In this document: one piece after another, positions 5,001-32,000 of the stretch
Layout of the letters: every line of letters begins with the position of its first letter
Numbering within the stretch: the first letter of the stretch is position 1
Assembly: GCF_900083515.1 (NCBI RefSeq)
Contig: NZ_LT671858.1
Location: 30,001 to 62,000 of the forward strand
Source of the DNA: Cuniculiplasma divulgatum
GTDB lineage: Archaea; Thermoplasmatota; Thermoplasmata; Thermoplasmatales; Thermoplasmataceae
DNA length: 32,000 nucleotides
Direction: 5' to 3'
The notes under the pieces: model-generated
What the model was told of the DNA's origin: nothing
Databases searched by the model: none
The model's input: only the letters and a program-made list of their open reading frames with translations
Made by a program: the position numbers and the translations under genes

Positions 5001-5298
5001 CTGCACAAAATGCAATGCAAAGTACAGGAGAATTCCACTTTCAGGAAAATGCCAAAAATGCGGAAATGATAACTTGATCCTCACCATACACAGAGGAGGA
5101 ATAGTGAAATACATGGAAGAAACTAGAAAATTAATGAAGAATTTCAACCTGCCACCTGCACAGATGTACAGGATAGAGAATATTTTCAGGTCAATAGACA
5201 CATCATTCAACAGTACCGAGGATATTCAGAGGGTCGAAACACACATTGAAAATCCACTGGATAATTACGGTGAAATTGAGGAGGAGATTCTGGAATGA
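2032..5298 (+). CDS. polC: DNA polymerase II (PolD) large subunit DP2
   Basis: 1088 aa, the typical DP2 length. It has Cys-cluster zinc modules (CTNCNHVGPEVRCSECG and CTKCNAKYRRIPLSGKCQKCG) and conserved blocks such as GRPEKAGERKMKP and NCDGDEDSVMLLMD. The length argues against an intein. Confidence 0.95.
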   Translation: MATISETDYQLLVRKKVNECYDVARVARSRGLDITDRVEIPLANDMADRIGELLNLKDISQEIRDLSLTMSREEVALEMAKRTAQKYSGEGMDKAVDMSVRVGLAILTEGILVAPLEGISRVTIGKNFDGTDYVSVVYAGPIRGAGGTAQALSVLIADLVRRQLNIGKFQITDEEIERYIEEIQSYNRVKHLQYLPDDQEIKNVLKNCPVCIDGEGSEDEEISGHRDMERFKTNKIRGGMCLVLCEGLLQKTKKVLKHTTKLGINDWDFLEKSGKNTTDVAVDRKATKFLGDLVAGRPVFGYPNRPGGFRLRYGRSRLSGLAAASIHPATMIILDDFVATGSQLKVELPGKAAAMTPCDEIEGPMVLLDDGRHLRIRDEKQAKEVVKKVVEITDLGEILISYGDFLENNHVLEPSPFVMEWWNKLAVAANVPRERIIVRNVKDAIDLSKEFHIPLHPDYNFFWHDLSVEEINELGDIITDSVKKKNYPSISGADKTEDILKKLGVEYHTVGNEIILDDKNILRELMGNFRHIETTDPMECISSIAGVTIMPRAPVRIGARLGRPEKAGERKMKPKVHSLFPIENTGSSRRSIMDAAKSSHSKYEVEVNVRKCTNCNHVGPEVRCSECGSPMKDSGTYEKIKVDLSKIWNSALDNLGVSPNDLKEFKGVKKVMSKGKHVEPLEKGILRSLNNVSVNKDGTCRYDMSDVPITHFKSSEIFLPEEKAREIGYEPGMNELFTQDIIIPMDCARYLLNVSKYVDDLLEKYYKMDKFYNCRDESDLIGHIVIGLAPHTSGGIAGRIIGFSRVNGGYAHPFYHAAKRRNCDGDEDSVMLLMDGLLNFSKDFLPSTTGGLMDAPLVMTLLLRPDEVDKEALNVDSQSEYPLEFYEATLKRIKPAEIEEMMKPVKYMVEKTGSARGMDFQFSTKDLNSGVLLSSYKTLETMSEKIEKQLNLAKIIRAVDQDDVASRLINSHFLPDMFGNYRGFFSQEMRCTKCNAKYRRIPLSGKCQKCGNDNLILTIHRGGIVKYMEETRKLMKNFNLPPAQMYRIENIFRSIDTSFNSTEDIQRVETHIENPLDNYGEIEEEILE

Positions 5299-6203: not shown

Positions 6204-6554
6204 ATGTGGCATCATATGAAACTGTCCGATGAAAAAATACTGAGAGGATTGCTCAGTATATACCTCTTAAGGGAAATGTGCATTAAACCACGTTACGGAT
6301 ACGAACTAAACAGGGAAGTTACGGAAAAAATAGGAGTGGAACTTCCAAAGGGTACAGTTTATGTTTTGCTCAAAAACCTTAAAAATAAGGGGCTTATAGA
6401 AAATGAAGGATCCTGTGAAGAGGATCATCAAAAGGCAGTAATATACAGGATAACAGATAAGGGACATGAGTTCGTAAAATCCCATTATCAGGCTCTGAGA
6501 CTTGCCAGAGGCATGATAGATGATATCCTTATGACAATTGATAATAATTTATGA
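6204..6554 (+). CDS. PadR-family winged-helix transcriptional regulator
   Basis: 116 aa. PRYGYELNREV...GTVYVLLKNLKNKGLIE matches the PadR wHTH signature. The true start may be the ATG at 6216 (MKLSDEK), given a TATA-like box near 6178-6189. Confidence 0.8.
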   Translation: MWHHMKLSDEKILRGLLSIYLLREMCIKPRYGYELNREVTEKIGVELPKGTVYVLLKNLKNKGLIENEGSCEEDHQKAVIYRITDKGHEFVKSHYQALRLARGMIDDILMTIDNNL

Positions 6555-6588: not shown

Positions 6589-7251
6589 ATGAGCATTAAA
6601 GTTTTAACAGCACCAGGACCAGTTTGTTTTCCACTGCTTGCAGTTGACAGTAAGGATATAGATGTAAAATTTGGAAAGGATGGGAATGCTGACATAATCA
6701 TGGATTCTTCAATCTCACTGATCAAGAGAAAGTTGCCAATTCATATGGTATTATTAAGTGGATTATCGATGGTTAGCCCAGATTTCAATGGAACAACAGC
6801 AATATTGAGAAAGGGTGGAGCAAGTGATGTTTTATCAAAAATTATTGTGAGGAATGAATCCTTGCCAGTAGACTTTGTTTATGGAGAGAATATGGAAGAA
6901 ATTAAAGCACTGTTAAATAAGGGTAAGGCAACTTCAGCAGTAGTTATGTCCATGAGTGGAATGAAAGGTATTACACTGGAGGAAAGGGCTAAGAAAGCTG
7001 GGATCTATGTCCCAGGAAGCTGTTCAGCCTCATTTGAGGATAGGAGCACTCTAAACGATTTCAGGACCATTTACAACCAGGGACTGGAGGAATTTAATAA
7101 AAATCCGGAAAAGGCTGCAGAGACAGTTTCAAAAAAATTACCGAATAAATTTCCTCTTGAGTTCATAATTGGCACCATGAAATCCATGAAGCCAATACTG
7201 GAAAAACCTCAAGATTACAGCAAGCTGGAAGGGGCAGTACTTAATGCCTGA
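6589..7251 (+). CDS. hypothetical protein (alpha/beta, possibly periplasmic-binding-protein-like; family not recognised with certainty)
   Basis: 220-aa ORF sits between the PadR and MFS genes on the same strand. Its stop overlaps the MFS start by 8 nt. No catalytic motif recognised. Confidence 0.6.
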   Translation: MSIKVLTAPGPVCFPLLAVDSKDIDVKFGKDGNADIIMDSSISLIKRKLPIHMVLLSGLSMVSPDFNGTTAILRKGGASDVLSKIIVRNESLPVDFVYGENMEEIKALLNKGKATSAVVMSMSGMKGITLEERAKKAGIYVPGSCSASFEDRSTLNDFRTIYNQGLEEFNKNPEKAAETVSKKLPNKFPLEFIIGTMKSMKPILEKPQDYSKLEGAVLNA

Positions 7252-12518: not shown

Positions 12519-13576
12519 TGGATGCAACTTTTTTCGGGAGTGCGTCCAAGTGCCGATTACTCAATGATGAGCTTCTAAAGGAAGAAACCTTCAGCGAACT
12601 CATAAATGCAGAGAGTTTTTCAGATGTTTTAAGAATAATGGACGGAACCCCGTACAGCACCCATATTCAGGCTCTATCAGGATTATACAGTTCCTATGAA
12701 CTTCTTGAGATTGCATCCAACAGAAGGATGATGAATCTTGTACTGAAAGTTGCAGAATCTCCTCCAGCAAATGGAAGGGAAGCAATTAAGAGTTACATAT
12801 CACGATGGGATATAGATAGCATAAAAAACATCATTACTTCAAAGTATCTTGGGAAAGATATAAAGAAGAGTGATATCTTTGTTGTTGACAGAAACAACTA
12901 CCCTGTGGGTATGCTTGGAAACGTGCTTACACCAGAAGATTATACATTAATGATAAATGAAAACGACATAGAGGGAATTTCTAAATATCTTGTGAAGCTA
13001 AGTTACGGAATATACCTATTAAAATATCTCGATGAGTACAGGAAGGAGAGAGATGTATCAGTGCTTCTGTATTCACTGGATATTGCATATTACTCAAGGC
13101 TTTTCGAAAGTGTTAAATATTTTCTTGGGAATGAGGAACCAGCGAGATTTTTTATAAGGGATGAGGTCGATCAAAAGAATCTTATGACACTGATAAAGGC
13201 AAAGACCCTGGGACTGGATTTTGAGGCCATAGATAATGGTCTAATGAACATGGGTAATATTGACATACAGAAGCTGAGAGAGATGTACAATTCAAGTGAA
13301 TCAGAAAATATAGCAATAAAGTGTTTGAACCTTTACGGAGTAAAAGGAATAGAAAATGAAAATGGAATTTCATCAGGAGAAGCAGAAACTCTCATGAAGA
13401 GGACTCTTCTGGAGAGGACCCTTCCGAGATTTTCCCTTCAATCGAATTCCATAGGTTCCATATTTAATACGCTTCTAAGGTTTGAGAATGAGAGAAATAA
13501 TCTGAGGATAATATTTGCTGGAAAGGCATATGGAATGGATAAGGAAAGAATAAGGAAGATGATGGTAAATATATGA
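12518..13576 (+). CDS. atpC: A-type ATP synthase subunit C (V-ATPase d homolog)
   Basis: 352 aa, all-helical, with the size and position expected of AtpC. There is a 1-nt TAATG overlap with atpE. Confidence 0.85.
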   Translation: MDATFFGSASKCRLLNDELLKEETFSELINAESFSDVLRIMDGTPYSTHIQALSGLYSSYELLEIASNRRMMNLVLKVAESPPANGREAIKSYISRWDIDSIKNIITSKYLGKDIKKSDIFVVDRNNYPVGMLGNVLTPEDYTLMINENDIEGISKYLVKLSYGIYLLKYLDEYRKERDVSVLLYSLDIAYYSRLFESVKYFLGNEEPARFFIRDEVDQKNLMTLIKAKTLGLDFEAIDNGLMNMGNIDIQKLREMYNSSESENIAIKCLNLYGVKGIENENGISSGEAETLMKRTLLERTLPRFSLQSNSIGSIFNTLLRFENERNNLRIIFAGKAYGMDKERIRKMMVNI

Positions 13577-13906: not shown

Positions 13907-15661
13907 TTGGGAAAGATAATCAGAGTTTCCGGTCCAGTAGTGGTCGCGGAAGATATTGAAAACCAAAAAATGTTTGATGTGGTTAGAGTAGGTGAACTCA
14001 ACCTCGTGGGAGAAATCATAAAGCTGAACGGTAACAGGGCAACAATACAGGTATACGAGGATACAAGTGGGATAAAGCCGGGAGAAAAGGTCGAGACAAC
14101 CGGAAAGCCTCTTTCAGTTGAACTGGGACCTGGATTACTTAAATCCATTTACGATGGTATCCAGAGACCTCTGGACATCATACGGGAAAGCAGTGGAGAT
14201 TTCATAAGGAGAGGTTATACAGCAAATCCCATAGATCTGAAGGCGAAATGGGAATTCAAGCCTCTGGTGAAAAAGGGTGATGATATAAAACCTGGACAGA
14301 TACTGGGAACAGTTCAGGAAACATCTCTTATAGAACATAAAATAATGGCTCCAAGGGACATAGAAGGTCAGATTAGTGAGATCCTTGAGGGCAGCATGAC
14401 CGTTACAGACGTCTATGCTCATGTTAAAACAAAGAATGGAGATAAAAAATTAACCATGAGGCAGGAGTGGCCTGTAAGGACTATCAGGGGTGTAAAATCA
14501 AAATTACCACCTTCCATACCACTTGTAACAGGTCAGAGGGTAATTGATACATTTTTCCCTGTAGCAAAGGGTGGAACAGTTGCAGTTCCAGGTCCATTTG
14601 GATCTGGAAAGACCGTGGTTCAGCACCAGCTGTCCAAGTGGGCAGACAGCGATATAGTTGTTTATGTGGGATGCGGTGAAAGGGGAAATGAAATGACCGA
14701 AATTCTCACAACATTCCCTGAACTGCAGGACCCAAAGAGTGGAAAGCCCCTCATGGAGAGAACAATATTAATAGCAAACACCTCAAACATGCCTGTTGCA
14801 GCAAGAGAAGCCAGTATTTATACTGGAATATCCATAGCAGAATATTACAGGGATATGGGATATGGAATTGCTCTAATGGCTGATAGCACATCAAGATGGG
14901 CAGAGGCCTTAAGGGAAATATCTGGTAGACTTGAGGAAATGCCAGGAGAGGAAGGATATCCAGCATATCTGGGAAGGAGGCTTTCTGAGTTCTATGAAAG
15001 ATCGGGAAATGCCATAATCTCTGGAAATCCAGACAGAAATGGTTCAATAACCATAGTGGGTGCAGTCTCACCACCTGGTGGAGATATATCAGAGCCTGTT
15101 TCACAGAACACCCTGAGAGTTACAAGAGTTTTCTGGGCACTTGATGCATCTCTCGCCTCGAGGAGGCACTTTCCATCAATAAACTGGCTGAACAGTTATT
15201 CGCTATATGAAAGTGAACTTCTGCCATGGTTCAGTGAGAATATATCCAAGGATTGGCCAACAATTTACAGTAAGATGATGAATATACTTCAGAAGGAATC
15301 TGAATTGCAGGAGGTTGTCCAGCTGGTTGGATATGATGCCTTACCAGACAGGGAAAAATCAGTTCTGGATGTTGCCAAGATAATAAGGGAAGATTACCTG
15401 CAGCAAAGTGCCTTTGACGATGTGGATCAGTTTTGCTCACTTAATAAGCAGATCGTGATGATGAAACTGATCATGCACTATTCCAATGAGATAGAGAAGA
15501 CAATTGATCAGGGATTCTCAATGTCTCAGATAGAGAATATACCTTCGAAGGAGAAAATTTCAAGGATAAAAGAGGTAAGAGATCCGGATCTGGAGAAGTA
15601 TTTCAATGAAACAGTGACCAGCATAGATTCAGATCTAAAAAGAATCAGGGGTGAAAAGTAA
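13907..15661 (+). CDS. atpA: A-type ATP synthase catalytic subunit A
   Basis: 584 aa with a TTG start. It has the Walker [12 protein letters not shown], a GERGNEM block and [26 protein letters not shown]. The length is consistent with no intein. Confidence 0.97.
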
Positions 15662-18144: not shown

Positions 18145-20073
18145 ATGGGTTTTAAGCCGGTGCCAATGGCAAGGATGAGGATAATTGCCTACAGGGAGAA
18201 GGCCGCAGGTCTACTTACACTTCTACATGATATGAAATCCATTCAGTTTGAGGACGTTACGGATTCCTACAAGGAGGGAATGAAATCCTCGACAGAGATA
18301 GAGGGAAGAGGAAGGGTAATAGAACTGATGAATGAGATCAGGGGAATGGAAAATCTCCTGCCTCCAAGGAAAATAACTGGAAAGAGAAAATTTTCAAGCG
18401 TGCAGGAAATAATCTCCGCAGCTGAATCAATAAGGATCGGTGAAGATCTGAGAACTGCTGTCAATTCCATAAATGACCTGAAAACGGAGCTGAAGAGCAT
18501 AGATAACAGACTTGAAATTGTGGAACCTCTTGAATCACTTGATGTGGATATGTCCTGTTTTAACAATTCTGTGATCTCATCCTATCTAATCCAGGGAGAA
18601 TACGAGGGAAAGATAGGGGAAAATTACATTGTAAACAGGGTTAACGGAAACACGGTGCTTTCAATGCCCAAGAGTGGAGAAAAGGAGTTCGCCCAGAGCA
18701 TTGGTTCTCAGTCTGGAAAGGCAATTTATATAATGCAGATGCGTGGAAAGCCCAGGGAGATCAGGGATGATCTTCTGAATCTCAAGAAGAACATAAACGA
18801 GAAGATAAGCGAATTGGAAACAGGTATAGGTGAGCTATCCGATAAGCATTATTCAGAAATAGTTTCTGTCAGGGAGGCCCTGGAAATAGAGGCAAAGAAG
18901 ATAGAAGCAGCAATGAAGATGCCATCTTCCCAGAGTATATTCGTTATGGAGGGCTGGGTTCCAGAACCCAAATTCCAGAAGATATCAGATGCCGTTGAAA
19001 GGAAAGCTGATCATCTCTGCATCATAGAAAGGGTAAAAACAGATGAAATAGGTCCAACACTACAGGATAATCCAAGGAGATTCAGGCTGTTTGAGTCATT
19101 CATACGTTTCTATTCACTACCTCAGGATATTGAGATAGATCCCACCATAATATTTGCCATAGTTTTCCCCATATTCTTCGGTATAATGGTAGGTGATTGG
19201 GGATTTGGAATAGTAATACTTCTACTATCGCTCTGGCTTATAAAAAGAATCAATTCAACTGGACCCAAGAAGCCACTTCCAAAAAAGATGACTGGATTCA
19301 TCACGTCCATATTCTCACCCTATCAGCTTCAGATACTGGCAAAGGCAATGCTTCCGGGTTCAATTGTGGCCATAATTGTAGGGATTCTATTCAACGGCTT
19401 CTTCGGCTTCGCCATACTGCCCACAACCATAGGGCCATTCCACATAACATATTTTAATCCAATTGTGTATACATCAAAAATACTGCTGATGACAGGCTAT
19501 TTCGGTGTTGTAATGGTGTCATTCGGTTTCATCCTGGGTATACTGAATGACTATTATTACAATCACAAAAAGATGATCATCGGGAAGGTAGGGTGGCTCC
19601 TTTTCGTCTGGGGAATAGTAATTTACGGATTATCACTAATATATAAGTTAAATCTCAGCCTTACCACAAACCCATTTGCTGATATTGACATAGCATCAAT
19701 GATACTTGGAGTAGTAATGATAATAGGCACGGAGAAGGGAATAGGTCTCATAGAATTGCCGTCGGTTATAAGCCACGTTCTATCATATCTGAGAATTATG
19801 GGAATCCTCCTTGCATCGGTAATTCTAACCAAGCTTGTGAACACATTCTTCATTTCAACACTGCATGATCCGGTTCTCATAATATTCGGTGTTATCCTTC
19901 TGATCATTGGGCAGCTGTTTGCTTTGCTGCTGGCTATTGTGGAATCTGGTATCCAGGGTGTAAGGTTGCTGTATGTTGAATTCTTCTCAAAATTCTACAG
20001 GGGAAATGGTAAACCATTCACACCCTTTGGATCAAAGAGAAGATATACTGAAGAAGTGAACGAAATAGAATAG
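18145..20073 (+). CDS. atpI: A-type ATP synthase membrane subunit I (V-ATPase a homolog)
   Basis: 642 aa. It has a soluble N-terminal half (PMARMRIIAYREKAAGLLTLLHDMKSIQFEDV) and a polytopic C-terminal half with the conserved Arg context SHVLSYLRIMGILLAS. Confidence 0.9.
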   Translation: MGFKPVPMARMRIIAYREKAAGLLTLLHDMKSIQFEDVTDSYKEGMKSSTEIEGRGRVIELMNEIRGMENLLPPRKITGKRKFSSVQEIISAAESIRIGEDLRTAVNSINDLKTELKSIDNRLEIVEPLESLDVDMSCFNNSVISSYLIQGEYEGKIGENYIVNRVNGNTVLSMPKSGEKEFAQSIGSQSGKAIYIMQMRGKPREIRDDLLNLKKNINEKISELETGIGELSDKHYSEIVSVREALEIEAKKIEAAMKMPSSQSIFVMEGWVPEPKFQKISDAVERKADHLCIIERVKTDEIGPTLQDNPRRFRLFESFIRFYSLPQDIEIDPTIIFAIVFPIFFGIMVGDWGFGIVILLLSLWLIKRINSTGPKKPLPKKMTGFITSIFSPYQLQILAKAMLPGSIVAIIVGILFNGFFGFAILPTTIGPFHITYFNPIVYTSKILLMTGYFGVVMVSFGFILGILNDYYYNHKKMIIGKVGWLLFVWGIVIYGLSLIYKLNLSLTTNPFADIDIASMILGVVMIIGTEKGIGLIELPSVISHVLSYLRIMGILLASVILTKLVNTFFISTLHDPVLIIFGVILLIIGQLFALLLAIVESGIQGVRLLYVEFFSKFYRGNGKPFTPFGSKRRYTEEVNEIE

Positions 20074-26229: not shown

Positions 26230-26251
26230 TATTAACACATACTGGTGAAAA

Positions 26252-26323
26252 GGGCCGGTAGATCAGCGGTAGATCGCTTGCTTTGCAAGCAAGAGGCCTC
26301 GGGTTCAAATCCCGACCGGTCCA
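26252..26323 (+). tRNA. tRNA-Ala (anticodon UGC), no encoded CCA, no intron
   Basis: Hand-folded cloverleaf. Acceptor GGGCCGG/CCGGTCC with G3:U70; D stem GATC/GATC; anticodon stem CTTGC/GCAAG with loop TTTGCAA. Variable loop is AGGCC; T arm is TCGGG-TTCAAAT-CCCGA; discriminator is A. Confidence 0.93.
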
Positions 26324-26372: not shown

Positions 26373-27662
26373 ATGACCATGCAGCCGAAGTACCAGGAAC
26401 TGCTTCTTGACGAGGACGTGCGAAGATGGTTTGAGAACCTCAGGGCAAAGTCCGTTCTTACTGCAACAGTGGCATTGAGAAATCTGGGCCACTATTGCGA
26501 ACTTACTCAGACCAACCCAAAAGAGATCCTGAAAAAGGCAGAGGCAGATGAGAAGGATTTCAGGTACGAATTCACAGATTTTGTCAGGAAGATGGAGAAA
26601 GAGGGCAAGGCAGGCTCTTACATAGCGAGGTTCAAGAAGGTTATTTTGTCATGGTTGAAGTTTAACGGTATCAGTTTGCAGTTAACCGTTAACATATCCG
26701 GGGAAAACGAAACACCGACAATCGTTAACGAAAGAGTACCTAGTAAGGAGGAATTGGCCAGAATATTAAGGAAAGCCACTTCAAGAGGCAGAGTTGCCAT
26801 AGCAATTATGGCATTCTCAGGCCTTCGACCAGAGTCCCTGGGAGACTACGAGGGCACAGATGGTCTCAGACTTGGAGATATCAAGGACCTGAGGATATCG
26901 GAAGAAATCAAGTTTGACAAAACACCAGCTATGATAGTGGTAAAGAACAAGCTTAGTAAGGCAAGGCACCAGTATTTCTCTTTCATAGGAGAAGAAGGAA
27001 CCACTTACATAATGGAATATCTGGAAGAGCGGAGAAAGCAGGGAGAGGAGCTAACTTACGAATCACCATTACTGCAATTCGATGTCCGTGGGGTGAAGAA
27101 AAACGACTTTCTGCGCACTACTCTCGTCACAAGGGATATACGGGAAGCAATAGAGAACTCAGGGCTGAAGATGCGCCCTTACGTTCTCAGGGCATATTTC
27201 AGCACAGCCCTTGATATCGCAGAAGCAAAAGGTCTCATTTCCCATCCTTGGAGACAGTTCATCATGGGCCACAAGGGCGATATCGAAGCGAGATACAGCA
27301 CAAACAAGAGATTGCCTCCAGATGTGATTGAGGAAATGAGAGAAGCCTACAGAAAGAGCACAAAGTTCCTTGAAATCAGATACAGCGAACTTGAGGAGGA
27401 CAAGGCAAGAATGTACCTGCAGCAGCAGCTCTTGTTGGCAGTGGGTTACAAACCGGAGGAGATTGATAAAATGGATCTAACGGAGATAAGCAACGATGAT
27501 TTCCAGAAGCTTCTCAGGGACAAGGTTGCAGGTGCAATGGCGAGCAATGGCTCGAAGCAGAGGCTCGTTCCCATGAACGAGATTGAGAAGCTCCTTAGCG
27601 AAGGATACGAATTCCAGGCAGTTCTGCCAAACGGAAAGGCTATAATGAAAATGCCTTTTTAA
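26373..27662 (+). CDS. int: tyrosine recombinase / integrase
   Basis: 429 aa. Arg I is in AFSGLRPESL, Arg II in PYVLRAYFST, and box II IMGHKGDIEARYS carries the nucleophile Tyr308. A long tail of about 120 aa follows the Tyr. Confidence 0.9.
   Translation: MTMQPKYQELLLDEDVRRWFENLRAKSVLTATVALRNLGHYCELTQTNPKEILKKAEADEKDFRYEFTDFVRKMEKEGKAGSYIARFKKVILSWLKFNGISLQLTVNISGENETPTIVNERVPSKEELARILRKATSRGRVAIAIMAFSGLRPESLGDYEGTDGLRLGDIKDLRISEEIKFDKTPAMIVVKNKLSKARHQYFSFIGEEGTTYIMEYLEERRKQGEELTYESPLLQFDVRGVKKNDFLRTTLVTRDIREAIENSGLKMRPYVLRAYFSTALDIAEAKGLISHPWRQFIMGHKGDIEARYSTNKRLPPDVIEEMREAYRKSTKFLEIRYSELEEDKARMYLQQQLLLAVGYKPEEIDKMDLTEISNDDFQKLLRDKVAGAMASNGSKQRLVPMNEIEKLLSEGYEFQAVLPNGKAIMKMPF
26662..26730. 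repeat. cluster of GTTAAC-type palindromes inside the integrase gene (TTAACGGT-N15-ACCGTTAA inverted repeat; GTTAACCGTTAAC; CGTTAACG)
   Basis: Read directly: TTAACGGT at 26662-26669, GTTAACCGTTAAC at 26681-26693 (contains AACCGTTA at 26684-26691), CGTTAACG at 26723-26730. Confidence 0.5.
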
Positions 27663-27690: not shown

Positions 27691-28374
27691 CTACTCAAAA
27701 TATGTGTCGATTTTCTTCATATGAATCAGCTTCTTTGAATTGTTGTAGTGAGTACTGCACCTCCAGACCAACTCTCCTGTCTCTTTTAAGACGTATTCCC
27801 CATTTCTTGAAGCCACCTCTTTCTTAACCTGCAATTTTGGTTTTACTTCCTTACCACAATGACTGCACTCTGCTTTTAGGTAGTTCCTCCACTCTCTTAC
27901 TGACGTTATGAAATCCCATATTACATGAGTTTGAAAATCATACATCTCTTCGGGAACATAACCTATCCTCTTTATGTAATCACACAGAATTTTCGATTCG
28001 TTCAGGGCTAACAGAGTAATATTGTTCTGAGAATCGTATATTTCTTCCAAATACCCATTTCCTTTCAACTCATTTATGTGATCCACAACAGTATCATATG
28101 CGAGTATCTTCTTCCGCGGGATTTTGATCGGCGTCTCTCTTTTAGACCTCCTGTGACCAAACATTTCAGTGATTCTTTCCTGTTGAAAAGCAGGACTTTC
28201 TGCCATATGGGGAATCTGAGGTGGTTCCAATTCATCATATTGCCTGATCATTGCCTCAACTATTTGTTGACAATGTGGACAAGACACAGTTAATCGGACT
28301 CCGGCGAATTCCATATTTAAAGACCATGATTTGTATTTCAAATTAAAGCTTAACATGATCGTAATGGAAAACAA
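27691..28374 (-). CDS. hypothetical zinc-ribbon protein (CPHC ... CSHC ... C-x2-H)
   Basis: 227-aa track ORF, with a likely real start at Met21 (MEFAGVRLTVSCPHCQQ, nt 28314). It has Cys pairs at both ends and a basic central stretch (HRRSKRETPIKIPRKK). It is transcribed divergently from the 28554-31103 operon. Confidence 0.55.
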   Translation of the reverse strand: MFSITIMLSFNLKYKSWSLNMEFAGVRLTVSCPHCQQIVEAMIRQYDELEPPQIPHMAESPAFQQERITEMFGHRRSKRETPIKIPRKKILAYDTVVDHINELKGNGYLEEIYDSQNNITLLALNESKILCDYIKRIGYVPEEMYDFQTHVIWDFITSVREWRNYLKAECSHCGKEVKPKLQVKKEVASRNGEYVLKETGELVWRCSTHYNNSKKLIHMKKIDTYFE

Positions 28375-28567
28375 AAATCCCTTGCTAGATGCACAACAAG
28401 TCTCTTTGATTAGCTTAAAAAAAGGGTTCTCATCGAAATTCCCAACGAGTCCTCTAAATCAAATACTTATCTCGGAGCCTGACTATGTAACTATAACTGA
28501 GCTTCTAGCGAAATCACAGACATGGTTTTCCATTTTGGAGAACAAGAGGAGGAATGGAAATGAATAA
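28355..28567 (+). CDS. possible small protein (about 67-70 aa), weak helix-turn-helix-like C-terminus
   Basis: The track ORF 28331..28567 starts at TTG, with in-frame ATGs at 28355 and 28364 downstream of the AT-rich TTTCAAATTAAAG. The stop overlaps the next ORF. YVTITELLAKSQTWFSILENKRR is only vaguely HTH-like. Confidence 0.3.
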   Translation: MIVMENKNPLLDAQQVSLISLKKGFSSKFPTSPLNQILISEPDYVTITELLAKSQTWFSILENKRRNGNE

Positions 28568-28910
28568 AGTGAGAAGAACTGTTTTGAATGAACCTGAGTA
28601 TTTGGGAGAAGACCAGCCCGAAATAATACAATATGAAATTGCCCCACAGAAGAAAGGCACCATAGAGAGACTGCAGGAAACCGTTATCGATAACACGGTT
28701 AACCGTTACGAGATTGAAGATCGCAGGCAGATAGCAGCCATAAGAGAGTTTATGGAGCGGAATCCCGACATCAGCTATGTGGAATATGAGTCCAATCCGG
28801 TGCTCAGGATGGATCTCGTAATAACGAGACGTGGTCTGATTTTCAAGCGGGAAGAGGCATCAATATCGGCCACACTGACGCCAAACAGGAGATTCAGGGC
28901 CCAGAGGTGA
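28554..28910 (+). CDS. hypothetical soluble protein, first gene of the element operon
   Basis: 116-118 aa. GAGGAGG at 28546-28552 fits the second ATG (28560, MNKVRRT) best. The stop lies 3 nt before the next start. No motif recognised. Confidence 0.5.
   Translation: MEMNKVRRTVLNEPEYLGEDQPEIIQYEIAPQKKGTIERLQETVIDNTVNRYEIEDRRQIAAIREFMERNPDISYVEYESNPVLRMDLVITRRGLIFKREEASISATLTPNRRFRAQR
28679..28709. repeat. two AACCGTTA copies 22 bp apart flanking the palindrome GTTATCGATAAC, second copy embedded in GGTTAACC
   Basis: Read directly: AACCGTTA at 28679-28686 and 28701-28708, GTTATCGATAAC at 28683-28694, GGTTAACCGTTAC at 28697-28709. Confidence 0.5.
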
Positions 28911-28913
28911 GTT

Positions 28914-29321
28914 ATGGAACTTGATGAGAAAGCGGGCCTTATATGCGTGATATGGGAATTATTCCTTATATTCTCAGCTATTTTCATGCCATCTGTTTGG
29001 CATGCTTTCCTCTGGCTTCTGGCATCAGGAAACATCTTTTTGGAAATCATAGGAGTAATAGGTATAGCAATAGCCCTCATAGGATTCCTGATAATCCTCT
29101 ACTACGTTATTTCTTACATTGTCCTTGCATTGGTCATCCTTTTCACTTTCGGTGCTCCCGCCTTGGCGCTTTATTATTTCCTTGGGCTAGACCATTCCAT
29201 CATCCTTGCTCTGGTGATCGCAGTGGCCATCATTCTATATCTTGTAGAGACCAGAGCAGTGAGAGTAGAACACCACACAGTCACCGTGGGCTTGAACAGG
29301 CGATACGTAATTAAAAGGTAG
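28914..29321 (+). CDS. polytopic membrane protein (about 4 TM helices)
   Basis: 135 aa, almost entirely hydrophobic helices (LICVIWELFLIFSAIFM, IIGVIGIAIALIGFLIILYYV, IVLALVILFTFGAPALALYYFL, IILALVIAVAIILYLV) with a basic C-terminal tail. GAGGTGA lies 3 nt upstream. The alternative frame 28943..29314 was rejected. Confidence 0.65.
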   Translation: MELDEKAGLICVIWELFLIFSAIFMPSVWHAFLWLLASGNIFLEIIGVIGIAIALIGFLIILYYVISYIVLALVILFTFGAPALALYYFLGLDHSIILALVIAVAIILYLVETRAVRVEHHTVTVGLNRRYVIKR

Positions 29322-29327
29322 GGAAAA

Positions 29328-31103
29328 ATGGATAAATATTTGAAAAGCCCAAGTCAAATTATGCGAGAAATGGGCTTTTCTGAACTTATCAATGCACGAA
29401 AGGTTCTATCCAGACCCATAATCGAATTGCCCTTAAAGAACGAGGAAAGGCTATTTTATCATCCAGAGAAAAGGCTCAAGAGATTCTCTGGCCGTACTGC
29501 TATTGCTTATGCCATCATACCCGACAGTGAGAGGGGGAAGTTCAGGAGAGAAGAGTGCTCTCCCAAGGTCTCATCTCTCAGAGATTATGTGATTCATAAG
29601 GGAAACAGGAACGTATCAATAACAGGAGTGTCAGGACAGGGGAAAAGCTATCTGACCACGCATCTTATATCCATATTCAGCGACAAGGAGACGATCATAT
29701 TCTCATTCAAGCCCAATGACCATGAACTGCATCTCGGAATTCCAGTGATAGATGCAAAAGAGTGTTTGCCAAATCCCTTCAGGGACGTGAATGCTTTTTC
29801 AGAGGCTTATATGACGGCTTTCTTTGGAGAGAAGACGTCATCAGGCATACAGCTGCAGCAGACTCCTGGATTTCTGCAGGAGATCGCTTCTGAAAGCGAC
29901 ACCTGGAAAGACTTCATGAAAAGCCTCTCTGAAAGAAAGAGAACTGCGTCAAAGAATCAGGTTGAGGCCCTGAATGCCATAGAGCAGAACGTGAAGACCC
30001 TCGTTATTGAGGACATGGATAGCGTCACTCTGAACAATGGGAGCATTGTCTTTGACTTCTCTTCACTGCCGACAAAGCAAGCCCAGAATTTCTATGCCGA
30101 GCTTATGCTGAGGCAAATATACAGGGAAATGGAGGAGCGCAAGAGGGAAGACGTTCTTGTACTCATAGACGAAGCTCATAGACTCACCAAGTCATATCAT
30201 ACAATCCTTGACATCATGTCCAGGGAGATAAGGGACAAGGGAATGCTTTGGATTATTACGCAAAATCTCATCGACATACTACCTGAAATGAGGGCAAACT
30301 TCGGAACAAAGTTCACCTTCAGACTTGGTGATGCCGATCTAAACATGCTGTCATACAATCCGCTGATGAGATTTGCCGTTGAGATACTACAGCCAAGGCA
30401 GTTCATAGACATAGAGTTCCCGGAAGGCTCATCATTTTCGCCGGTATTCACATACGTTTCGAATGGCTTGGAGCACAAGGAAACACAAAAGGTCGCGGCG
30501 GAGGTATCGGAGCCAAAGAGGGAAGTGGGAGTCGGAGGGAGAGGGGAGATCATCGACTTCAGGAGGGAGGCCCAGGAAATCCTCAGCGAGAAGATGTCTT
30601 ATGCAACAGAAATGGGAAAGATAATCGCAGAGAAGTATGGTATCACGAAGGATCAGGCAAAACTCAAGCTGAAATCTGCTCTTGAAGAACTCAAGAACAA
30701 CAACGAAGTTGGTAGGGTGAAGTATCTCAGGGAAGGAAAGCCAATAGTTATGTATTATTCCAGGAATCCGAATCTGTCGAATCTGCATACAGGAATGCAG
30801 AGCCAGGTGGTGGGAATCCTGAATGATCTCGGTGTAACTATAAACAGGATATCCACCACGGGAGAAAGGAGTGCATTTGACATCGAAACAGACTTCTTCA
30901 TGATCGAGATTGAAACGGGCTTGAAACACAGCATGGAAGACCTGAAAGACAGAATAAAGAGCACCAACCTGAGAGTGATCATTATTGTACCGAACAAGGA
31001 ACTAATGGAGAAGTATATAGGATTAGAAGAGAACGTAATTGTTGCTACCATTGACTCCTTCAAGGTCCTTCTTGAAGAGCCTCAAAAAAATAGAGGCTCA
31101 TAA
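29328..31103 (+). CDS. HerA/FtsK/VirB4-superfamily P-loop ATPase fused to a C-terminal wHTH and restriction-endonuclease-like (Hjc/Mrr-like) module
   Basis: 591 aa. Walker A is GVSGQGKS (nt 29625-29648) and Walker B is VLVLIDEAH (30153-30179). REIRDKGMLWIITQNL...FRLGD resembles the Arg-finger/sensor region of DUF87/HerA-type ATPases. Residues about 410-478 look like a wHTH. Residues about 483-560 follow the pattern seen in Hjc-type nucleases. Confidence 0.8.
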   Translation: MDKYLKSPSQIMREMGFSELINARKVLSRPIIELPLKNEERLFYHPEKRLKRFSGRTAIAYAIIPDSERGKFRREECSPKVSSLRDYVIHKGNRNVSITGVSGQGKSYLTTHLISIFSDKETIIFSFKPNDHELHLGIPVIDAKECLPNPFRDVNAFSEAYMTAFFGEKTSSGIQLQQTPGFLQEIASESDTWKDFMKSLSERKRTASKNQVEALNAIEQNVKTLVIEDMDSVTLNNGSIVFDFSSLPTKQAQNFYAELMLRQIYREMEERKREDVLVLIDEAHRLTKSYHTILDIMSREIRDKGMLWIITQNLIDILPEMRANFGTKFTFRLGDADLNMLSYNPLMRFAVEILQPRQFIDIEFPEGSSFSPVFTYVSNGLEHKETQKVAAEVSEPKREVGVGGRGEIIDFRREAQEILSEKMSYATEMGKIIAEKYGITKDQAKLKLKSALEELKNNNEVGRVKYLREGKPIVMYYSRNPNLSNLHTGMQSQVVGILNDLGVTINRISTTGERSAFDIETDFFMIEIETGLKHSMEDLKDRIKSTNLRVIIIVPNKELMEKYIGLEENVIVATIDSFKVLLEEPQKNRGS

Positions 31104-31244
31104 ATGAAGCATGAAGAGGATTGCCAAGACTATAACGAATGCGATACCTGCTTTGACTAGACTCTTGAAAATGACGAATAGGATGAAGAACACAATCAGT
31201 GCTCCCCCAATAGAGGCTTCAATCGGTGAAATTGGAACTGCCAC
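31098..31244 (-). CDS. possible 48-aa two-helix hydrophobic protein
   Basis: My own translation from GTG (complement of 31242-31244): MAVPISPIEASIGGALIVFFILFVIFKSLVKAGIAFVIVLAILFMLHL. Its stop TGA (complement of 31098-31100) abuts the ATPase stop codon. It is below the track cutoff. Confidence 0.25.
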   Translation of the reverse strand: MAVPISPIEASIGGALIVFFILFVIFKSLVKAGIAFVIVLAILFMLHL

Positions 31245-31291
31245 ATGGGTTGCGCGCAATATTTAAACCTGAACTTGCATGAGAATGAACA

Positions 31292-31519
31292 ATGAACTGG
31301 AAGCTGACATCCATTCTTGTGATTGTTGTCGTGGCATTCATATTCTTAGTTCCTGTAGTTCCCGCTGTTGGATTATTACCCGGTGTTGCCCAAATCCAGA
31401 ACCATCCAGTATATTTCCACTATTACAAATCGATAAGCGGTGTATTCACTCCATTCGGGACAAGCTTCTATGGGAAATACTACTTCCATCCGTTTCCGTT
31501 TTGGGGTACTTATGCTTAA
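31292..31519 (+). CDS. small secreted/membrane-anchored protein, aromatic-rich C-terminus
   Basis: 75 aa with an N-terminal hydrophobic helix (LTSILVIVVVAFIFLVPVVPAV). The TATA-like AATATTTAAA at 31258-31267 lies about 27 nt upstream of this ATG, which fits a leaderless mRNA. This favours it over the overlapping 31279..31584 frame. Confidence 0.4.
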   Translation: MNWKLTSILVIVVVAFIFLVPVVPAVGLLPGVAQIQNHPVYFHYYKSISGVFTPFGTSFYGKYYFHPFPFWGTYA

Positions 31520-31642: not shown

Positions 31643-32000
31643 ATGATCATCGCCATCGCTAACCAGAAAGGAGGTTGCGGAAAGACAACCACCGCAGCGA
31701 ATCTTGGAGCGTTGCTATCGAAGAAACACAGAGTGCTTCTGATTGACATCGACCCGCAGGGAAATCTCACCACTCATTTTGGAATCAACAAGGCAGATCA
31801 AAAGCGCACAATATACGATGTAATGTTAAATGGCAGGATTGAGGAATCAATAATCCGAAAGGACGGGATCGACATCGTACCAAGCACCATCGACCTTGCA
31901 GGTGCGGAGGTTGAGCTAACAGGAAGGATTGGCCGCGAGTACATTCTGGATAATGAACTCAAGAGGATTGCCAGGAAATACGACTTTGTAATCATAGATA
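31643..32000 (+). CDS. parA: ParA/Soj-family partition ATPase (N-terminal 119 aa; continues beyond the window)
   Basis: My own translation: MIIAIANQKGGCGKTTTAANLGALLSKKHRVLLIDIDPQGNLT...DFVIID. It shows the deviant Walker A KGGxGKT and the DxDPQ motif. It is absent from the track because no stop lies in the window. Confidence 0.9.
   Translation, partial: MIIAIANQKGGCGKTTTAANLGALLSKKHRVLLIDIDPQGNLTTHFGINKADQKRTIYDVMLNGRIEESIIRKDGIDIVPSTIDLAGAEVELTGRIGREYILDNELKRIARKYDFVIID

Follow-up and report, generated by a model that had tools for sequence, protein, structure and literature searches.

We analysed a stretch of 32,000 nucleotides (nt) from the archaeon Cuniculiplasma divulgatum (NZ_LT671858.1, positions 30,001 to 62,000; hereafter the window, whose own numbering is used throughout) that carries an operon comprising orf70, p118, tm135, and a gene for an ATPase of 591 amino acids (aa). 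The ATPase appears to represent an uncharacterised clade of the HerA/FtsK/VirB4 superfamily, and the operon, judged by its sequence and that of its relatives, is the conserved fourth module of an integrated element, besides integration, partition, resolution, and replication. We tentatively favour the reading that the operon specifies a membrane-anchored, element-specific double-stranded DNA (dsDNA) translocase for horizontal transfer, whether by cell contact or by vesicles, and consider the module the strongest candidate for the means by which elements of this family pass from cell to cell among the acidophilic Thermoplasmatales. A transfer role is suggested because integration, partition, resolution, and replication are covered by other backbone genes, leaving the operon as the sole remaining conserved module, and because its proposed design, in which a ring-type motor is anchored in the membrane and a winged helix reads specific sites, is that of membrane DNA pumps.

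An earlier note on this DNA had assigned the ATPase to the HerA/FtsK/VirB4 superfamily from its motifs, and both the motifs and the predicted structure bear this out. The Walker A (GVSGQGKS, residues 100-107), Walker B (VLVLIDEAH, 276-284), and RDKG..IITQNL..FRLGD motifs are all there, with the polar sensor stretch IITQN at 309-313 (TQN at 311-313), and K106, E282, and Q312 are invariant in an alignment of 60 sequences. The protein is laid out as a lineage-specific N-terminus with a beta-hairpin (residues 1-90), the motor (91 to ~395), a winged helix-turn-helix (wHTH) domain (407-480), and a C-terminal domain (481-591). AlphaFold2 modelled the whole protein from the 60-sequence alignment with a predicted local distance difference test score (pLDDT) of 89.6, and a second model reached 93.8. 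The RecA-like core superposes on HerA and VirB4; the best Foldseek matches in the PDB were HerA (4d2i, E 2e-10) and VirB4 (4ag5, E 4e-10), with a probability of 1.00, followed by HerA-type repair and defence ATPases (Sir2-HerA, DUF4297-HerA, TdpAB) and the C-domain of DndH. The ATPase presumably forms a ring.

Profile libraries (Pfam, NCBIfam, PHROGs, and PADLOC) place the ATPase in no curated family. Pfam returned weak, sub-threshold matches to ResIII, AAA_22, and AAA_10 (23.5 bits for AAA_10 against a cut-off of 27.5), and NCBIfam returned weak matches to VirB4 of the Mycoplasma integrative and conjugative element (3.4e-7) and to CedD (4e-4), with bit scores of 28 against a cut-off of 590 for VirB4_plasma and 15.6 against 567 for TraC. 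A phmmer search against PDB sequences gave no match. Among 60 relatives, Pfam detected AAA_10 in 25 and P-loop_TraG and TrwB_AAD_bind in a few; DUF87/HerA_C matched 10-13 of the 60 weakly and FtsK_SpoIIIE (PF01580) matched eight at 5e-4 or weaker, and neither matched the window protein. No VirB4 N-terminal domain is present, as only ~90 residues precede Walker A, and Pfam and NCBIfam detected no homologue of VirB2, VirB3, VirB6, or VirD4 in the window or in ~16 kb of an identical element. Likewise, the usual partners (NurA, Sir2, a relaxase, VirB6, and capsid proteins), none of which the earlier note had recognised, were not found in Pfam, NCBIfam, PHROG, and PADLOC scans. An exhaustive search of 1.84 billion representative proteins recovered 253 related clusters at 50% identity. 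The earlier note had called the operon uncharacterised, but the ATPase is not entirely without a record: in 2011 Angelov et al. (PMC3177234) filed a homologue on plasmid pPO1 of Picrophilus oshimae under COG0433 as an 'FtsK-related protein', without functional study. We found nothing in the literature on the protein beyond this annotation, and no description of the element family.

Two domains follow the motor. The first, which the earlier note did not mention, is the wHTH; in the AlphaFold2 models it comprises helices at 411-421, 426-437, and 441-457 and a beta-hairpin at 461-478, and it matches PadR/RosR/Lrs14 proteins both by profile against the PDB (E 1.4e-3) and by fold. The second has a predicted alpha-beta-beta-beta-alpha-beta-alpha-beta-alpha topology, for which DSSP on two models assigned helices at 485-500 and 537-544 and strands at 505-508, 519-521, 524-528, and 549-554. 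In this domain H487, E527, E529, and G531 are invariant among sequences that are ~20% identical overall, and D518 (often PD), K533, P555, and Y563 are at least 90% conserved. The candidate catalytic motif reads (P)D518, eight residues, E527-x-E529, and K533 four residues on, with an ExE variant resembling that of BamHI. The predicted topology and the PD, ExE, and K pattern fit a restriction-endonuclease-like fold, and a nuclease role is plausible on the modelled structure. A weak match of this domain to ACT (E 0.0045-0.02) was rejected as being at odds with the predicted topology.

The functional link between membrane protein and ATPase that had been read into the operon is supported by distant homologues, most of which, when full-length (600-660 aa), have two hydrophobic transmembrane (TM) helices fused before Walker A. 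Such TM-fused homologues occur in Micrarchaeota, Nitrososphaerota, and other Thermoplasmata, and the 658-aa open reading frame (ORF) of pPO1 has the fused helices as well. The window subfamily is without them; it has its own N-terminus of 80-90 residues, and tm135 always lies 6 nt upstream. We infer that tm135 functionally replaces the fused helices and docks the motor at the membrane. In keeping with the earlier description of a protein made almost entirely of membrane helices, tm135 has a grand average of hydropathy (GRAVY) of 1.47 and is hydrophobic from about residue 8 to 112, after which a basic tail follows. Its homologues share an SGN..F.E.IG motif and a basic, cytoplasm-type C-terminal tail (ET..V.VEH.T.T...RRY..KR). 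No family match was found in Pfam or NCBIfam, and no fused forms were found among the homologues. The possibility that tm135 is itself a detached N-terminal TM domain was discarded (hhalign against 24 fused N-termini, probability 1.5%), and profile searches with hidden Markov models (HMMs) found no relatives of tm135 or p118 in the distant loci.

Two of the retrieved loci, which are labelled by L-numbers, encode a 111-aa form of the membrane protein (L065:10378-10710 and L022:8184-8516) that is exactly 23 residues, or one whole hydrophobic helix, shorter than that of the window. The SGN motif and the C-terminal tail are retained whether or not this helix is present; at face value, its loss should flip the topology of one end. 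In mosaic copies the N-terminus of the ATPase follows the tm135 type (in L008 the ATPase core is 93% identical, residues 1-55 are 69% identical, and tm135 is 40% identical). In L010 and L011 it is the last domain that is the more similar part (91-95% identical, with the core at 78-79%). Such mosaic genes point to recombination between co-resident elements inside the ATPase gene.

The ORFs of the operon are real genes and not chance ORFs, with >180 homologues of the ATPase, 106 of p118, and 39 of tm135 in public data. Three genes had been described previously, and these are present on the + strand with gaps of 3 and 6 nt, each with its purine-rich motif (GAGGAGG, GAGGTGA, and AGGTAGGG) directly 5' of the start; a fourth conserved gene, orf70, which overlaps the start of p118, had been overlooked. 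Many gene callers begin p118 at 28560 (116 aa) and the ATPase at M12 (580 aa); for the ATPase we favour the start at 29328, since residues 1-11 are kept in the homologue from Thermoplasma volcanium. The orf70 product is small and basic and is possibly a regulator. As had been noted, p118 encodes a soluble protein without recognisable motifs (GRAVY -0.81; no match in Pfam, NCBIfam, PHROG, or PADLOC). No other protein of the operon is as well conserved: across 31 distinct genes, residues 35-118 hardly change while third codon positions vary freely, and none of its database homologues (106 protein clusters) bears a name or falls below 66% identity. Given this extreme constraint, p118 probably binds a conserved partner. 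A cis-acting DNA site within p118 was considered, as the gene holds adjacent 12-bp palindromes (GTTATCGATAAC and ACGGTTAACCGT) and a related repeat lies near the p90 gene. However, third codon positions in the palindromes vary as elsewhere, and these repeats therefore reflect chance or coding constraint.

The earlier suggestion that the operon is borne by an integrated element is well founded, as it is accompanied by a tRNA-Ala gene, a tyrosine integrase, ParA, a resolvase, and a Cdc6-like replication protein. When eight junctions are aligned, the tRNA proves host-specific in its 5' half, while the sequence from the T-arm onward is common to the element. Homology with other element copies begins at 26249-26251, and other copies are 99.9% identical to the window from the tRNA onward. 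The integration targets are tRNA-Ala genes with a TGC or CGC anticodon; the integrase, whose orthologues have a weak precomputed Phage_integrase match, is 80-100% identical in at least 25 related loci and always adjoins tRNA-Ala. The backbone runs integrase, variable region, orf70, p118, tm135, ATPase, small ORFs, and ParA, followed by p90, a second variable region, resolvase, Cdc6-like protein, and variable restriction-modification cargo. Past the end of the window, near-identical copies encode ParA and a 90-aa protein, which together make up the partition module, then small membrane proteins, a serine resolvase for multimer resolution, and an Orc1/Cdc6-like AAA protein for replication, as well as a type III Mod/Res pair and a ParE toxin. 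ParA is kept in nearly all related elements, and a full 250-aa orthologue matches AAA_31, CbiA, and ParA.

Among plasmid records, pPO1 alone showed a relative of the ATPase; the element is 32% identical to pPO1 in the ATPase (over 80% of the query), 60% in the resolvase, and 43% in the Cdc6-like protein. Because these three proteins are shared, the element can be regarded as an integrated, larger relative of pPO1, and it is plasmid-like and not a recognisable provirus. A provirus was rejected, as no link to a virion emerged from PHROGs, IMG/VR (two scans), INPHARED, or BFVD. These results bear on the idea that the ATPase and small membrane proteins might form a packaging motor that loads element DNA into a vesicle or an unrecognised virion of the PRD1 or pR1SE-like type. 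A motor combined with nuclease-like and DNA-recognition domains is terminase-like, PHROG 2666 ('terminase large subunit') matches weakly (3.2e-8), BFVD includes matches to packaging ATPases of membrane-containing viruses (PH1, 9e-8; Corticoviridae, 5e-6), small membrane proteins lie on both sides of the ATPase, and vesicle transfer has been proposed for pT26-2 and pR1SE (PMC6972569). However, no capsid or other virion gene was recognised in ~16 kb of the element, no relatives occur in IMG/VR or in the GenBank phage and archaeal-virus records (INPHARED), and the strongest BFVD matches were VirB4-like 'conjugal transfer' proteins. We therefore regard packaging as very unlikely, while recognising that its vesicle version overlaps with transfer and is inseparable from it in silico.

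Loci were retrieved with an alignment of 12 sequences, the 60-sequence alignment being too divergent for pattern design. Relatives of the element were identified in T. volcanium GSS1 (BA000011.4), Cuniculiplasma divulgatum, Acidiplasma aeolicum, Thermogymnomonas acidicola, Caldiplasma, Ferroplasma type II, E- and I-plasma, and many metagenome-assembled genomes (MAGs) from acid mines. All 30 Thermoplasmatales loci that were found via the ATPase and include upstream DNA have the order orf70-p118-tm135-ATPase, and loci found via s75 (a small ORF downstream of the operon) and via p118 show the same order. Among loci found via the replication gene, the module is present in all three that have this gene intact and enough upstream sequence. 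Copies without the module have a truncated replication gene adjoining the integrase and are thus taken to be deletion remnants; in L088, L097, and L086, integrase or unrelated DNA abuts a C-terminal-only Cdc6-like gene, and the operon, ParA, and resolvase are gone. The three genes of the earlier note accordingly travel together in every non-decayed Thermoplasmatales locus with enough upstream DNA, as a co-inheritance check had called for. In L062 (5150-8070), a MULE-family transposase (464 aa, opposite strand) stands in place of orf70, p118, and tm135 beside an intact 580-aa ATPase, and this locus amounts to a natural knock-out of the small genes.

The genes of the module change at different rates and differ in range. 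At ~75% ATPase identity, p118 (residues 35-118) is ~92-98% identical and tm135 is 33-50% identical; tm135, which always lies directly 5' of the ATPase, diverges fast (34-89% identity). orf70 is 38-65% identical across all close loci, and is called as a 70-aa gene in L001-L003; its HMM profile also has a match in L048 and L049, in the position immediately 5' of a distant, TM-fused version of the ATPase. Profile and database searches detected no relatives of p118 and tm135 outside one Thermoplasmatales sub-lineage; these two proteins thus appear to be sub-lineage-specific and do not accompany the ATPase family in general. The T. volcanium GSS1 reference genome has the element in full (L065; BA000011.4:1554065-1574439), where it is apparently undescribed; this copy encodes integrase, orf59, p124, tm111, a 593-aa ATPase (76% identical to that of the window), ParA, resolvase, a Cdc6-like protein, and type III Mod/Res. 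In MAGs of Micrarchaeota (L037-L046, L051, L053, L055, and L056), which are DPANN symbionts of Thermoplasmatales, we found TM-fused relatives of the ATPase at 30-54% identity. Some of these have housekeeping genes (PolB, Cgi121, TruD, and malic enzyme) at a distance of a few kb, whereas others are next to a transposase, an integrase, a C5-methylase, a DndB-like gene, or a DUF87 ATPase. A Thermoplasmatales-type module at 75% identity is present on a single 7.3-kb contig that was binned as Micrarchaeota (L020), reflecting either mis-binning or a shared host range.

The same backbone bears on whether the ATPase might serve maintenance in the manner of FtsK, as a membrane translocase that reads oriented sites, clears or segregates element copies at division, and passes dimers to the resolvase or integrase. 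The order of a TM anchor, a motor, and a C-terminal wHTH equals that of FtsK, a few family members weakly match Pfam FtsK_SpoIIIE, the pPO1 authors' annotation points the same way, and a resolvase and a tyrosine recombinase are conserved together with the module. Yet the elements already have a ParA-based partition pair and a resolvase, the fold is nearer to HerA/VirB4 than to FtsK, and pPO1, at ~12-15 copies per genome (PMC3177234), would have less need for active segregation. Maintenance would also leave the nuclease-like domain without a role and the rapid spread between lineages unexplained. Collectively, we consider such a role distinctly unlikely.

Evidence for that spread comes from two contigs in which the element is 99.96% identical over 8963 bp, whereas the syntenic host flanks (RFC and DEAD helicase) are ~70% identical. 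The window copy, 99.9% identical, sits at a different tRNA-Ala gene with another flank. Such near-identical copies in diverged flanks indicate that the element crossed lineages recently. No other candidate transfer genes were found in the conserved backbone by Pfam, NCBIfam, and element-copy scans, and the module is present in all non-decayed relatives, in contrast to the restriction-modification cargo, which varies. We know of no account of how plasmids or integrated elements move between Thermoplasmatales, and populations of Ferroplasma and related archaea in acid mines recombine frequently by a route that is not known.

In the proposed mechanism, tm135 would hold the HerA/VirB4-type motor at the membrane and the winged helix would pick out element DNA. 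The C-terminal domain would then cut or grip this DNA, and the motor would drive it in double-stranded form through a single membrane, either into a cell in contact or into a vesicle that is budding off. Since there is no cell wall in Thermoplasma, Ferroplasma, Acidiplasma, and Cuniculiplasma, one membrane per cell would have to be passed. Such minimal transfer would be akin to that by Streptomyces TraB/FtsK or to a terminase, and not to a full type IV secretion system. In its most specific form, in which one HerA/VirB4-type protein, anchored either by TM helices of its own or by a small polytopic partner, recognises, cuts, and pumps DNA and thereby provides minimal archaeal conjugation between wall-less Thermoplasmatales, the idea is somewhat doubtful. 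The TM-fused relatives in Micrarchaeota and Nitrososphaerota could act likewise across contacts between Thermoplasmatales and Micrarchaeota.

Several observations weigh against transfer by such a device. Scans with Pfam and NCBIfam turned up neither a pilin nor a VirB6-like channel nor a coupling protein, and no similarity could be detected between tm135 and VirB3, CedA, or the fused TM segments. A transcription start of pPO1 has been mapped inside the TM-coding part of the long ORF (PMC3177234), and the fused form may not be the only ORF1 product. That the ATPase N-terminus varies together with tm135 is in line with an interaction, but physical linkage would be enough to explain it. For the last domain, no nuclease was recovered in Pfam (whole protein; 60 and 30 members), in phmmer and profile searches against PDB sequences, or among the top 50 Foldseek matches of a separate C-terminal model, which were dominated by wHTH proteins. 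Because no search recovered a nuclease, the 'nuclease fusion' that headed the earlier note, and that the note itself left unsupported, is something that we infer from the fold topology and the conserved PD..ExE..K residues. An attR, or right-hand attachment (att) repeat, was not found within 17 kb by exact and 4-mismatch searches with the att core or by a longest-common-substring search in L057. Finally, some distant homologues lie near DndB-like, C5-methylase, DUF87, EVE, or housekeeping genes and not in plasmid backbones, and the best single profile E-value for the ATPase (1.8e-10) belongs to PADLOC mad8, the model of a defence-system ATPase.

The last two observations are among those that favour defence or exclusion, in which a membrane-bound HerA-type ATPase with a fused nuclease might destroy incoming virus or plasmid DNA and thus be cargo that benefits both host and element. 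The distant homologues beside DndB-like, C5-methyltransferase, DUF87, and EVE genes also lie near integrases, in the manner of defence islands; Sir2-HerA, DUF4297-HerA, TdpAB, and the DndH C-domain are among the Foldseek matches; the invariant acidic residues suggest an enzyme; and both the element and pPO1 carry restriction-modification genes. However, the mad8 match covers the generic P-loop core only (the MADS preprint holds no domain information on mad8), and PADLOC, run on the operon and the zinc-ribbon proteins, together with a scan of the element, found no partner effector or other mad genes. The module is fixed in the backbone of every intact relative, whereas the restriction-modification cargo is swapped. 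Moreover, two to four related elements, each with a module of its own, co-reside in single genomes or bins (two copies in CP009479, four contigs in YS3.bin24, and three in FK5.bin124), which is contrary to mutual exclusion. N-terminal TM helices and a sequence-reading wHTH are typical of FtsK, SpoIIIE, and TraB and not of known HerA defence ATPases. On balance we consider defence unlikely. Of the transfer apparatus and the defence module between which the earlier note had left the choice, we tentatively favour transfer.

The features of the window that belong to the element are listed in Table 1. Upstream of 26250 the window is ordinary archaeal chromosome, with genes for CTP synthase, the PolD large subunit, the A-type ATP synthase operon, a type-2 IDI-like FMN enzyme, and isopentenyl-phosphate kinase. 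The zinc-ribbon gene sits in the variable region of the element; it is 100% identical in the closest copies only, and other genes take its place elsewhere. Downstream of the ATPase, s75 shows third-position-biased substitution (4/5/29 by codon position). The coding strand of the ORF at 31098-31266 is not separable by substitutions, because both frames share their wobble position. Each of these two small genes is present in only a subset of relatives.

Table 1. Features of the integrated element within the window (window coordinates).
Feature	Position	Strand	Description	Basis
tRNA-Ala(TGC)	26252-26323	+	3' part (T-arm to 3' end, ~26296-26323) is the left attachment site	ARAGORN
Integrase	26373-27662	+	tyrosine recombinase, 429 aa	NCBIfam XerA E 2.8e-9; PHROG 1 integrase
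Zinc-ribbon protein	27691-28314	-	double zinc-ribbon protein, 207 aa as called (ORF open to 28374)	weak zinc-ribbon Pfam matches, two CxxC pairs
orf70	28355-28567	+	first operon gene; small basic protein, 70 aa; overlaps p118 start	translation and homologue calls
p118	28554-28910	+	118 aa, soluble, acidic; matches no recognisable family	
tm135	28914-29321	+	polytopic membrane protein, 135 aa, 4-5 hydrophobic helices	hydropathy and alignments
ATPase	29328-31103	+	591 aa; HerA/VirB4-like motor, wHTH, and C-terminal domain	AlphaFold2, Foldseek, profile searches, alignments
Small conserved ORF	31111-31266	ambiguous	+ reading: 51-aa basic protein; - reading: 53-aa two-helix membrane protein (31098-31259)	
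s75	31292-31519	+	small protein with N-terminal hydrophobic helix	ORF list and hydropathy
ParA	31643-32000 (runs off window)	+	ParA-type partition ATPase, 5' part	KGGCGKTT in translation

Other copies of the element show further structures. In L057, ~600 bp of non-coding, G+C-rich DNA with short repeats (19150-19760) follows the ParE toxin gene and contains a 19-nt inverted repeat (19280-19298 and 19413-19431); this region may be an origin of replication or mark where the element ends on the right. In L012 the att core occurs twice upstream of the integrase (2366-2390 and 7024-7048), with 4.6 kb between the copies, and ARAGORN finds no intact tRNA there, which suggests tandem integration or what is left of another element that had used this site. 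In L058 the 3' end of the integrase gene is repeated perfectly over 40 nt in direct orientation (5079-5118 and 6336-6375; also in L057, L059, and L064), and between the two repeats lies a 1.26-kb insert that holds three small ORFs (203, 83, and 70 aa). It is not present in the window copy and resembles a cassette acquired through recombination at the end of the integrase. In L001 a direct repeat of 71 bp (94% identical; 13240-13310 and 13979-14049) surrounds a gene for a 177-aa DoxX-like membrane protein, which occurs in the closest element copies only.

The combination of domains in the ATPase is not covered by Pfam, NCBIfam, PHROGs, or PADLOC, and the module is a compact candidate route for gene exchange among Thermoplasmatales. 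If minimal conjugation proves true, the ATPase would be an archaeal counterpart of TraB on a different branch of the superfamily and a mechanism behind gene exchange among acid-mine archaea; if defence or maintenance is its role instead, the architecture would still be new for that role. Because cultured T. volcanium GSS1, Acidiplasma aeolicum, C. divulgatum, and Thermogymnomonas acidicola, as well as P. oshimae pPO1, carry the module, these readings are directly testable.

Among known systems, the nearest is ORF1 of pPO1 (NC_016049.1 / JN032732), which is 32% identical over residues 92-563 and has the same ATPase, wHTH, and EIETGLKH C-terminal domain. Unlike the element, pPO1 is a free 7.6-kb plasmid without integrase, ParA, orf70, p118, or tm135, and its helices are in the ATPase frame (658 aa). 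HerA-NurA, Sir2-HerA, DUF4297-HerA, TdpAB, and DndFGH provide the best core structure matches and share the logic of an ATPase with a nuclease or effector, but the window protein is putatively membrane-linked, has no match to a HAS-barrel-type N-domain, lacks a NurA, Sir2, or DUF4297 partner, and carries its putative effector as a fusion.

TraB alone is sufficient for plasmid transfer in Streptomyces. The ATPase resembles TraB and FtsK/SpoIIIE in functional logic and domain order, with a putative membrane anchor, a presumed hexameric pump, and a C-terminal winged helix that would read specific sites and here matches PadR/RosR/Lrs14. It differs in that its motor is on the HerA/VirB4 side by fold, with no FtsK_SpoIIIE match, and in having an extra nuclease-like domain and an archaeal host.

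Among archaeal systems, CedB and CedD are TM-containing HerA/VirB4-like ATPases that drive DNA import (PMC11868833), and about half of the Ced and Ted ATPases (CedB/CedD and VirB4/TedB) have N-terminal TM helices and work with polytopic membrane proteins (PMC11868833, PMC9905601). The window protein is likewise an archaeal HerA/VirB4-type ATPase, and it weakly matches CedD (4e-4). However, its CedD score is 19 against a cut-off of 600 bits, and the window has no VirB4-like N-domain and no CedA/VirB6-like or CedA1/VirB2-like partner. Ced proteins in turn lack the wHTH and C-terminal domain, and Ced is chromosomal and induced by ultraviolet light whereas the module belongs to a plasmid backbone. 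The pT26-2 family comprises integrative plasmids of Thermococcales and Methanococcales whose core pairs a HerA/VirB4-like ATPase with membrane proteins as a suspected transfer device (PMC6972569). No sequence relation to it was found; the pT26-2 core has 7-12 genes, nine of them for membrane proteins, compared to four genes here, and an SSV-type 'suicidal' integrase, compared to the intact tyrosine recombinase at a tRNA gene here. Collectively, residues and fold place the ATPase in the FtsK-HerA superfamily, and these comparisons do not support membership of VirB4, HerA, FtsK, the coupling proteins, the described defence systems, or the viral packaging ATPases. What is new is a clade of a known superfamily and its domain architecture of TM helices, motor, wHTH, and nuclease-like domain, carried on an undescribed family of plasmid-like elements.

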